Shown in pieces: positions 41,104-41,940 of a stretch of DNA of 64,000 bases. The stretch comes from Escherichia phage EC.P1: sequence record PQ657772.1; one strand, written 5' to 3'. Position numbers and translations under genes: made by a program. Within the stretch, counting starts at the first letter, position 1; every line of letters starts with the position of its first letter. The notes below the pieces were generated by a model, which was not told where the DNA came from, searched no databases, and worked only from the letters and a program-made list of their open reading frames with translations.

Positions 41104-41112
41104 CTCACAAGG

Positions 41113-41140
41113 AGCCAGCACATTGTTGCTGGTTTTTTTT
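41113..41140 (+). terminator. intrinsic terminator
   Basis: CCAGCA-cattgt-TGCTGG hairpin followed by T8. Confidence 0.6.
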
Positions 41141-41149
41141 GGTTTTAAA

Positions 41150-41300
41150 CTACAGAATTGATTGAATTGAATTATGAAAGGAATTAATTATTTTATAGTG
41201 AACTCATCTAACTCATTTCATTCGTTAGCTGAAGAATATTCGTTACTACGTAACTCATATTCATTTCTTATAATTAATTATAAAGAACTTTAAAAGATTT
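41150..41300. repeat. AT-rich region with short direct repeats (AACTCAT x3, TTGAA tandem)
   Basis: Seen directly in sequence; non-coding. Confidence 0.35.
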
Positions 41301-41357
41301 AATACTTGACGGGATTTGTTGAAGACATTTTCATCCCCCCGCAGGGGAATGAAGACA

Positions 41358-41812
41358 ATAAAAAAGAGACAATTAAGTCTCTTAATTCTTGACGCTGATG
41401 GTTTCAGCATTTATTGTATTGCGAATTTCTTAAAATTCATTAAGAACGAAAGCGGGTTGCTCTGTTTCTCTCTATCGCAGTCATGTGCAACGGTCGTCAG
41501 TCTTAATCATCCTGACACTCACCTGAAAGTCTATACAATCAAACTTCAGGCTGTTTATTAAATCACTTAATAAACTCCCTTAGCAAATCTGGTAAGGTGC
41601 GATCCTTATACATCTATCGAGGAACTCTCTGTATGCTTATCGGAGTTCTTTATTGAGCCGTGTCGCCGTGAGGGGTTCAAACTATGCCCACATCTAACGG
41701 GTTTCTTCTGCTCATCGCACTGTTGAACTGCTCATCTGCCATCTACATTTTCGATAGGATCAGGTTCTAATTTATATGCATTTCTGCATTCAACAGGATT
41801 GTCATCACTACA
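41358..41812 (-). ncRNA. candidate structured non-coding RNA (~455 nt)
   Basis: GGTGCTATAAT extended -10 at 41827..41819; AGAGAC-loop-GTCTCT hairpin plus U-run terminator near 41382..41358; GC-richer segment with several hairpins; no ORF of 60 aa or more on this strand. Confidence 0.25.
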
Positions 41813-41902
41813 ATTAACATTATAGCACCAAATTCAAAAGTGTCTCACTATTATGATAAAAAATTTATAAAAAGTACATAATTCTTGAACATTGAAGTAA
41901 CG

Positions 41903-41911
41903 CATAAATAT
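41903..41911 (+). promoter_or_regulatory. late promoter-like motif (CATAAATAT)
   Basis: ~30 nt upstream of ATG 41941. Confidence 0.35.
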
Positions 41912-41940
41912 TTTGATAAGAATTAGTTTAGTGGGGATTT

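Follow-up and report, generated by a model that had tools for sequence, protein, structure and literature searches.

Comparative evidence for a probable large, pseudoknotted RNA gene shared by enterobacterial jumbo phages and small chromosomal islands

The stretch of 64,000 nucleotides analyzed here (the window), from Escherichia phage EC.P1 (PQ657772.1), contains an 837-bp gap between protein-coding genes which probably represents, at a likelihood that we put at roughly 0.8, a stand-alone gene on the minus strand for a large and highly structured non-coding RNA (ncRNA). By sequence comparison, this gene is one of four anciently diverged paralogues in the phage genome, and the RNA family to which it belongs is confined to jumbo phages of the RaK2/121Q type and to small, integrase-bearing islands of the Enterobacterales.

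The preliminary description of this DNA had proposed a structured minus-strand RNA and, as a check, an alignment of related phages in which compensatory base changes could be sought. The proposal is strongly supported by massive compensatory changes, together with a promoter conserved in its position, and further copies for the alignment were gathered through a pattern scan of IMG/VR. The curated fold of the RNA core (approximately 510 nt, minus strand, 41302..41813; alignments A1 to A3 and pair counts) comprises 17 helices, including three pseudoknots, with 89 base pairs scored on 34 diverged sequences, bacterial copies included. Double changes were found in 61 of these 89 pairs, and 94.3% of the cells are paired, versus 78.4 +/- 0.4% in shuffled alignments and 40-44% where the partners were slid. 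The double-change cells number 471, versus 129.5 in the shuffles, a value that none of 500 shuffles reached, and the covariation score is 0.447, versus 0.167 for shuffled and at most 0.087 for slid partners.

RNAalifold, applied to 27 copies in the minus sense, likewise returned compensatory changes in 17 of 23 pairs of the 5' half and in 29 of 47 pairs of the 3' half. The global alignment A3 gives no score for H1, for H8 or for the outer portion of H9, given that MAFFT misaligns these variable hairpins, and H9 is supported on alignments A2 and A5.

The RNA begins with a hypervariable 5' terminal segment, behind which the conserved body follows. The first pseudoknot, PK0 (minus strand, as for all helices below; 41720..41796), joins CUGUUGAA (41796..41789) to UUCAACAG (41726..41720), the latter lying inside the loop of H3 (41731..41729 with 41719..41717; double changes in two of three pairs), and seven of its eight pairs show compensatory changes. 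Between the two strands of PK0 stands H2 (41763..41753 with 41743..41736, loop GAAAAUGUA), where double changes affect 7 of 8 pairs. H4 (41714..41710 with 41658..41654) is paired in 100% of the cells, with four of five pairs compensatory, and H6 (41648..41643 with 41627..41622) is compensatory in all six, H5 (41700..41697 with 41669..41666) and H7 (41608..41605 with 41596..41593) lying within the same region (41593..41714).

The 3' domain (41413..41551) is composed of H9, PK1, H10, PK2, H11, H12 and H13. In the long hairpin H9 (41551..41541 with 41532..41521), the loop AUUGUAU (41539..41533) pairs with AUACAAU (41419..41413), approximately 115 nt downstream, to form PK1, in which all seven pairs are compensatory and 99% of the cells are paired, one pair being distributed as 17 CG and 17 UA. 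In PK2, GUUGC (41491..41487) meets GCAAC (41460..41456), inside the H12 loop, and compensatory pairs are found in H10 (4/5), H11 (3/5) and H12 (3/5). The junctions carry motifs that are invariant throughout the core, namely GAUGAG, a GGCAAUGCGGC-like motif, AUAAAG, CGAUAG, CUAAGGGAG, GACCGUUGC, GAAACAGAGCAACCCGC, GGGGGGAUGA and CAAAUCCCGUCA, to which GAAAC.G.GCAACCCGC and CAAAUCYCGUCA are added.

A few observations concern variants of this fold. An optional module of approximately 35-45 nt (consensus ...UACAAUAUAGAUCCGUCCAAAAUU...) may follow CUAAGGGAG, lie in the H13 loop or occur in both of these places, and its presence is independent of phylogeny; it occurs, for example, in copy C of phage TH47, and the window copy carries it at neither site. 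In this respect, the module resembles a small mobile or swappable RNA domain. A metagenome contig (OERT01000393.1, 7425-7648) gives a full-length match of 112.6 bits to the covariance model of the 3' domain, and nhmmer covers only positions 246-530 of the profile there, so this copy may be a natural "half" RNA without the 5' domain. A hammerhead-like reading of CAGAUGAG...CGAAG was rejected by eye, since the bases that would correspond to the invariant GAAA differ among the copies.

Upstream of the core, the promoter scan and a conserved alignment block place a -35-like hexamer, GAGACA, at 41841..41846 of the minus strand (GGGACA or GGAACA in other copies), and an extended -10 element, GGTGCTATAAT (TGnTATAAT), at 41819..41829, in the same position across nearly all copies. 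Together, GAGACA-16-TGcTATAAT (41846..41819, spacing of 16 nt) has the sigma-70 extended -10 architecture, and 31 of 32 phage copies, as well as every island copy, have TATAAT or TATACT at the matching position. Transcription would thus start near 41812, from a near-consensus extended -10 read by the sigma-70 RNA polymerase of the host. The preliminary description had noted this minus-strand element, which is both present and conserved, but had implied two further identical ones upstream of other genes, and the window holds only one other exact copy (46536..46526, minus strand).

The plus-strand site TTGACG-N17-TATTGT (41389..41417), which had been listed as promoter-like, is present, but its paralogues read TATCGA, CTGTCG or GTTCAT in place of the "-10". 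This hexamer is not a conserved promoter element because it is the 3' strand of PK1, covarying with the hairpin loop. As a separate observation, TGnTATAAT occurs ten times on the minus strand of the window (4797, 5205, 9650, 14823, 14899, 18088, 20126, 31559, 41819 and 46526) and once on the plus strand (59538), the exact GGTGCTATAAT being found only at 41819 and 46526, and this distribution suggests a set of early promoters for the host polymerase, strongly biased toward one strand.

The minus strand is favored as the sense strand because the promoter keeps to one and the same side of the element in almost all copies, and because G.U cells outnumber A.C cells in the curated helices (204 versus 43, leaving helix H9a aside). 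Alternation of U.G with C.G and of G.U with A.U is seen at many positions inside the covarying helices. The folding energy of the single sequence is significantly lower than that of its shuffles (z = -3.2 for the minus and -3.5 for the plus strand), yet these scores do not tell the strands apart. Evidence from the single sequence is suggestive only, and the decisive evidence against chance is the comparative one.

It had initially been suggested that the transcript could end after approximately 455 nt, at an AGAGAC-loop-GTCTCT hairpin with a T-run. This hairpin is indeed present (H14, AGAGAC/GUCUCU with a U-run, 41383..41358, minus strand), was recovered by the terminator scan and covaries in five of six pairs, but the end proposed there appears not to be supported, given that the structure continues and some copies do without the hairpin, which is absent from the D-type, RaK2 and some island copies, the U-run being weak in the islands. 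H14 and its U-run would be at most a partial terminator or attenuator, giving rise to a species of approximately 455 nt, because they lie inside the conserved unit and the covarying helices run some 200 nt further.

Beyond H14, conserved or covarying elements include H15, CAAAUCYCGUCA, UGAAUUGAG, H16 and H17. H15 (UCAUUCCCC-UGC-GGGGGGAUGA) and the invariant motif CAAAUCCCGUCAAG occupy 41305..41352 of the minus strand, and the stem of H15 varies only from U.G to C.G, which fits pairing on the minus strand only. A hairpin 3' of UGAAUUGAG has a conserved loop, (G/A)AACGNAGUGA, and H17 is compensatory in eight of nine pairs across phage and island copies. In the window copy, this 3' extension (41208..41263, minus strand) is a diverged version without a clear H17, and contains UGAAUAUGAG, a variant of the conserved UGAAUUGAG, together with a GUUAC-GUA-GUAAC hairpin (41254..41242) and an H16-type hairpin, CUAAC-GAAUGAAAUGA-GUUAG (41228..41208). 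At several phage loci, only 10-30 nt separate the end of H17 (UUUGACAUUC-GAAG-GAAUGGCAAA) from the ribosome-binding site (RBS) and start codon of a co-oriented gene. H17 includes there a perfect TTGACA, and might also serve as an operator of translation or as the -35 of the promoter of the next gene.

The scan also identified a strong bidirectional intrinsic terminator (placed at 41087..41138 and, with its 12-bp stem and the T-runs on both sides, at 41109-41148), the plus reading of which closes the upstream genes, and terminator-like sites as a whole number four, versus 0.4 expected by chance. Read on the minus strand (41121..41097, with a U-rich tail), it probably closes the RNA unit, which would yield a transcript of approximately 720 nt, and in GAP32, Munch and metagenome phages the AAAAACCAGC...GCTGGTT terminator also stands behind the RNA at the syntenic locus. 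Given that the 3' modules and then the terminator follow the core, the RNA unit would fill nearly the whole gap, from about 41846 to 41090.

The distribution of the element among phages is narrow. Matches were found in 70-71 of 50,697 phage records, all of them jumbo phages of 310-386 kb, with four matching places per genome in Asteriusvirus, five in the Eneladus/Mimasvirus type and two in the RaK2 type. The window belongs to an Asteriusvirus jumbo coliphage, and the gap itself is 100% identical to the Escherichia phages BF17, vB_Ec-M-J and WPEC3 and 87-99% identical to other Asteriusvirus jumbo phages (121Q, PBECO4, phAPEC6 and others). Outside Asteriusvirus, a conserved core of approximately 490 nt (about 41298-41790 of the window) recurs, with identities of 67-74%, in Eneladusvirus (Serratia BF, Yersinia fHe-Yen9-04 and Erwinia phages), Mimasvirus (GAP32 and XbC2), CBB and the Munch/7t3 group, and in part in Alcyoneusvirus (RaK2 and K64-1).

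In the 64-kb window, a repeat search returned a single copy. The unannotated genome of TH47 has copies at 49.4, 146.0, 261.9 (the copy of the window) and 345.5 kb, which share their orientation and are 67-80% identical to one another, and the 3'-domain covariance model R1 yields exactly four matches in the 352 kb of TH47, with one in the window. The best matches in BF, Yen9-04 and XbC2 are at another locus, beside an ADP-ribosylglycohydrolase gene, and GAP32 and Munch keep the synteny of the window, from which it follows that the paralogues predate the genera. The genes next to the phage copies differ from copy to copy, and the convergent arrangement seen in the window is among those that occur. 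Two Mimasvirus genomes deposited as Xanthomonas phages, OP292654 (XbC2) and OR258281 (XaC1), also carry the RNA, and, of all phage copies, one from XaC1 comes nearest to the chromosomal-island form (76%), a likeness which hints at a recent exchange between jumbo phage and island.

The RNA is also found in bacterial genomes, with eight full-length copies in the GTDB genomes (strict 30-base pattern) and some 49 more in the metagenome scan. Among the carriers in GTDB are the complete Serratia fonticola GTA-SR07 chromosome and large contigs from Enterobacter chinensis, Silvania, Serratia and Buttiauxella. In E. coli, BLAST located a copy in two of 5,426 complete genomes, in an island of approximately 10 kb next to ffs, and no match was obtained in the plasmid collection or among cultured temperate phages. 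The order of the bacterial locus is an integrase, the RNA, a convergent CI-like S24 repressor gene and two unknown genes, the integrase being a tyrosine recombinase in some cases and a large serine recombinase in others, exchanged between loci. Other neighbors include a DNA invertase and matches to the PADLOC candidate defense genes PDC-S73, PDC-M45A and PDC-M01B. No protein gene near the RNA is common to islands and phage, the only shared homologue, of DUF4326, being unlinked.

Two of these islands may be described further. In E. coli LR-29-1 (NZ_AP027515.1, 3470142-3488515), the island of approximately 10 kb lies between ffs and ybaA and holds a tyrosine integrase disrupted by IS3, the RNA in an unannotated gap of 1.4 kb, DUF4326 and DUF488 genes, a resolvase and a dual-OB gene matching the PADLOC candidate PDC-M45A. 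In the chromosome of Serratia fonticola (4240001-4248000), the RNA comes after a large serine recombinase and a tandem pair of ParB/RepB-like genes and abuts two tandem rof genes and tilS, and the duplication of rof suggests integration into or beside this gene.

The presence of two to five ancient paralogues in at least four phage genera, the exchange with islands that carry candidate defense genes and the strong, host-type promoter of the RNA itself suggest that its role in the biology of mobile elements is general and under strong selection. With regard to its mode of action, we give slightly less than even odds to the reading in which the RNA would act in trans through its three-dimensional fold, neither by long antisense pairing nor in cis. 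Its synthesis would set in immediately upon infection, or would be constitutive in the case of the islands, and the RNA particle would bind or titrate a factor common to enterobacterial hosts or to rival mobile elements, or else act alone, as an accessory "moron-like" RNA in the conflict between phage and host or between elements. A trans-acting particle is favored because of the self-contained mobility of the element, its host-type promoter, the lack of any fixed neighbor or partner gene and the conservation of a precise fold.

Several observations weigh against the interpretation of the gap as the gene for such an RNA. Transcription, start, end and mode of action are all read from sequence comparison, and the role in trans is argued from context and exclusion only. 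PK2 is invariant save for two sequences that change on both sides, its covariation coming from these two only. The asymmetry between G.U and A.C is partly biased, as the curated helices were first seen on the sense strand, and RNAalifold energies, raw G.U counts of independently predicted folds and z-scores are alike on the two strands. Promoter-like sites number five, versus 5.0 expected by chance, so that promoter matches alone carry no weight in this AT-rich region, and copy B of TH47, the body of which is intact and which is the closest paralogue of the window copy (80%), shows no recognizable -10 at the conserved position (TTACTTAATGG). In PA5oct, a phage of the same broad clade with similarly ORF-less regions, that is, regions without an open reading frame (ORF), four such regions of 236-619 nt were defined by RNA sequencing (ncRNA001-004), two of them being highly transcribed throughout infection (PMC7318152); ncRNA002 and ncRNA004 have no similarity to the RNA of the window by nhmmer or by model R1.

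A bolder version of the trans-acting reading, which we consider unlikely, is that of a protein-independent effector, either a new class of ribozyme or a self-assembling particle of the GOLLD/ROOL type, which would itself be a weapon or shield among jumbo phages, defense islands and hosts. If this were true, each phage would carry two to five diverged paralogues with different specificities.

On the other hand, the region had also been described as a possible replication origin, and the copies could be origins primed by a structured RNA, comparable with ColE1 RNA II or with the R-loops of T4 oriF/oriG, a reading to which we assign a low probability. Each copy would then be an origin, a persistent hybrid downstream would prime leading-strand synthesis, and the islands, as pirated copies replicated by the jumbo phage, would be the first known satellites to pirate jumbo-phage replication. 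ColE1 RNA II is comparable in size to a structured RNA of approximately 500 nt, and genomes of the T4 type hold several origins. In keeping with this, several dispersed copies lie on the same strand of a T4-related genome of 350 kb, a sigma-70-type promoter drives a putative structured transcript of about the size of RNA II, an AT-rich stretch (GC content of 0.23 at 41150-41299) is found past the core, an invariant G6 run stands beside a C4 run, and an integrase and a CI-like repressor adjoin the RNA in the islands, as in phage satellites.

The details of the gap speak otherwise. The RNA of the window differs from these primers in its three covarying pseudoknots and invariant junction bases, which denote a precise three-dimensional fold that primer RNAs do not need, and in its occurrence in islands, where a strong constitutive promoter is kept in spite of the harm that firing would cause. 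The AT-rich stretch contains the short direct repeats reported from it (AACTCAT at 41201, 41210 and 41252, and TTGAATTGAA at 41162), but these "origin-like" AACTCAT repeats are AUGAGUU in the RNA sense, parts of the 3' hairpin modules, and the stretch as a whole consists of conserved, covarying hairpins and not of an unwinding element. With respect to a T4-type origin, the 500 nt past the promoter are the GC-richest part of the gap (0.40-0.47) and are structured; with respect to ColE1, no conserved antisense promoter is found, the sole plus-strand site not being conserved as a -10. No replication-initiator gene is common or adjacent to the copies. The GC skew has no consistent relation to, or inflection at, the four copies and follows gene orientation, for which reason it was rejected as an origin indicator, and the origin reading is thus left without positive support, the RNA unit standing alone in chromosomal islands as well.

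The probability is slim that the RNA is a cis-acting leader, that is, a giant riboswitch or attenuator for a downstream gene on the same strand, with the internal hairpin as its expression platform and H17 gating the RBS. A terminator-like hairpin does lie inside the conserved unit, H17 precedes co-oriented genes at the short distance given above in BF, Yen9-04, XbC2 and metagenome phages, and copies C and D of 121Q are co-oriented with the genes downstream. However, the window and all loci syntenic with it (GAP32, Munch and others) have a terminator at the close of the unit and a convergent gene beyond it, what follows the RNA has no common identity among the copies (ADP-ribosylglycohydrolase, various hypothetical proteins or none), and the island unit faces the end of the repressor gene.

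The chances are very small that the element acts at the level of DNA, as a repeat for protein binding, partition or packaging, or as a folded single-strand initiation signal. Covariation of Watson-Crick pairs is the same whichever strand is read, the two strands have similar folding energies, TTGACG is present twice and ParB-like genes adjoin one island copy, but the promoter is conserved at one end only, the G.U excess in the curated helices is accompanied by alternation of G.U with G.C and A.U, long-range pseudoknots have no role in duplex DNA, and iteron-like arrays are lacking.

Finally, the gap has no convincing ORF, as had been remarked at the outset. The longest are of 81 (TTG start), 49 and 39 amino acids, and across the 34 homologous copies the longest ORF ranges from 46 to 100 amino acids and shifts in strand, frame, position and start codon, so that no frame is kept and no conserved ORF was found. 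A decayed protein-coding gene or a set of small ORFs, which some records imply by annotating a "hypothetical protein" (e.g., CDS377 and CDS378 of WPEC3), is therefore of negligible probability, given these shifting ORFs, the mixed frames of tblastn between copies, the substitutions that follow base-pair covariation and the majority of records that annotate nothing.

The covariance search against Rfam, another check named in the preliminary description, matched no known family in the window or in 12 other copies. At the gathering threshold, Rfam 15 gave no match in the 64 kb, GOLLD, ROOL, group I and II introns, STAXI, transfer-messenger RNA (tmRNA), RNase P and self-cleaving ribozymes included; at E<=10, only chance-level terminator matches were obtained between 40800 and 42200, and at E<=1 nothing was obtained inside the RNA body of the 12 other copies. 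An Arrc14 match (36.6 bits versus a gathering score of 99) corresponds to the bidirectional terminator only, and ARAGORN detected no tRNA or tmRNA gene in the window.

In kind, the RNA resembles GOLLD and ROOL, large "ornate" ncRNAs of phages and prophages, mostly of Firmicutes, which form RNA-only homo-oligomeric cages (PMC12286853). It shares with them a length of at least 500 nt (approximately 500-800 nt), many helices with pseudoknots and strong covariation, and stand-alone genes in phages and integrated elements without a cognate protein gene. It differs from them in lacking an Rfam match, in its Enterobacterales hosts, in its two to five diverged copies per genome and in the absence of tRNA genes from the 64 kb, adjacency to tRNA genes being frequent for GOLLD and ROOL. 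The HEARO and omega RNAs, guide scaffolds of IscB and TnpB, are likewise large, pseudoknotted and borne by mobile elements, with a hypervariable 5' end before a conserved body. In contrast, the RNA described here has no Rfam match and no IscB, TnpB or other nuclease gene that is adjacent or common to its copies, the genes around it being those of EndoVII, baseplate, integrase, CI-like and ParB-like proteins and unknown products.

Full-text literature searches, which took in the genome papers of phAPEC6, UE-S1, Sharanji, fEgEco12 and PA5oct but few subscription journals, returned no description of the element. As a 2023 survey of viral structured RNAs comprises motifs of 29-151 nt only, fragments of the RNA may figure there.

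To our knowledge, only a handful of large pseudoknotted RNAs that lack a protein partner have been recognized (RNase P, group I and II introns, OLE, GOLLD, ROOL and raiA), each of which opened new biology. As this RNA occurs in E. coli phages and chromosomal islands, genetics would be possible in the best model host, unlike the case of GOLLD and ROOL, and its carriers include cultivable jumbo phages of E. coli, Klebsiella, Salmonella, Serratia and Erwinia that are under development for therapy. In GenBank, the region carries no annotation in most records, small hypothetical proteins in others and, once, a "repeat_region", so that about 0.6-0.8% of these genomes is unannotated or misannotated as small hypothetical proteins, which a covariance model would mend.

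The gap is flanked on its left by a small plus-strand ORF (40894-41103) behind a baseplate-hub-like gene and on its right by the EndoVII gene (41941-42432, plus strand). The GC-richer center with hairpins that had been noted is confirmed by the GC profile, which is 0.40-0.47 at 41375-41749 versus 0.23-0.30 in the flanks, and by the position of the hairpins, TCATCCCC...GGGGAATGA being found at 41331-41352 and CCTGAAAGT...ACTTCAGG at 41522-41550.

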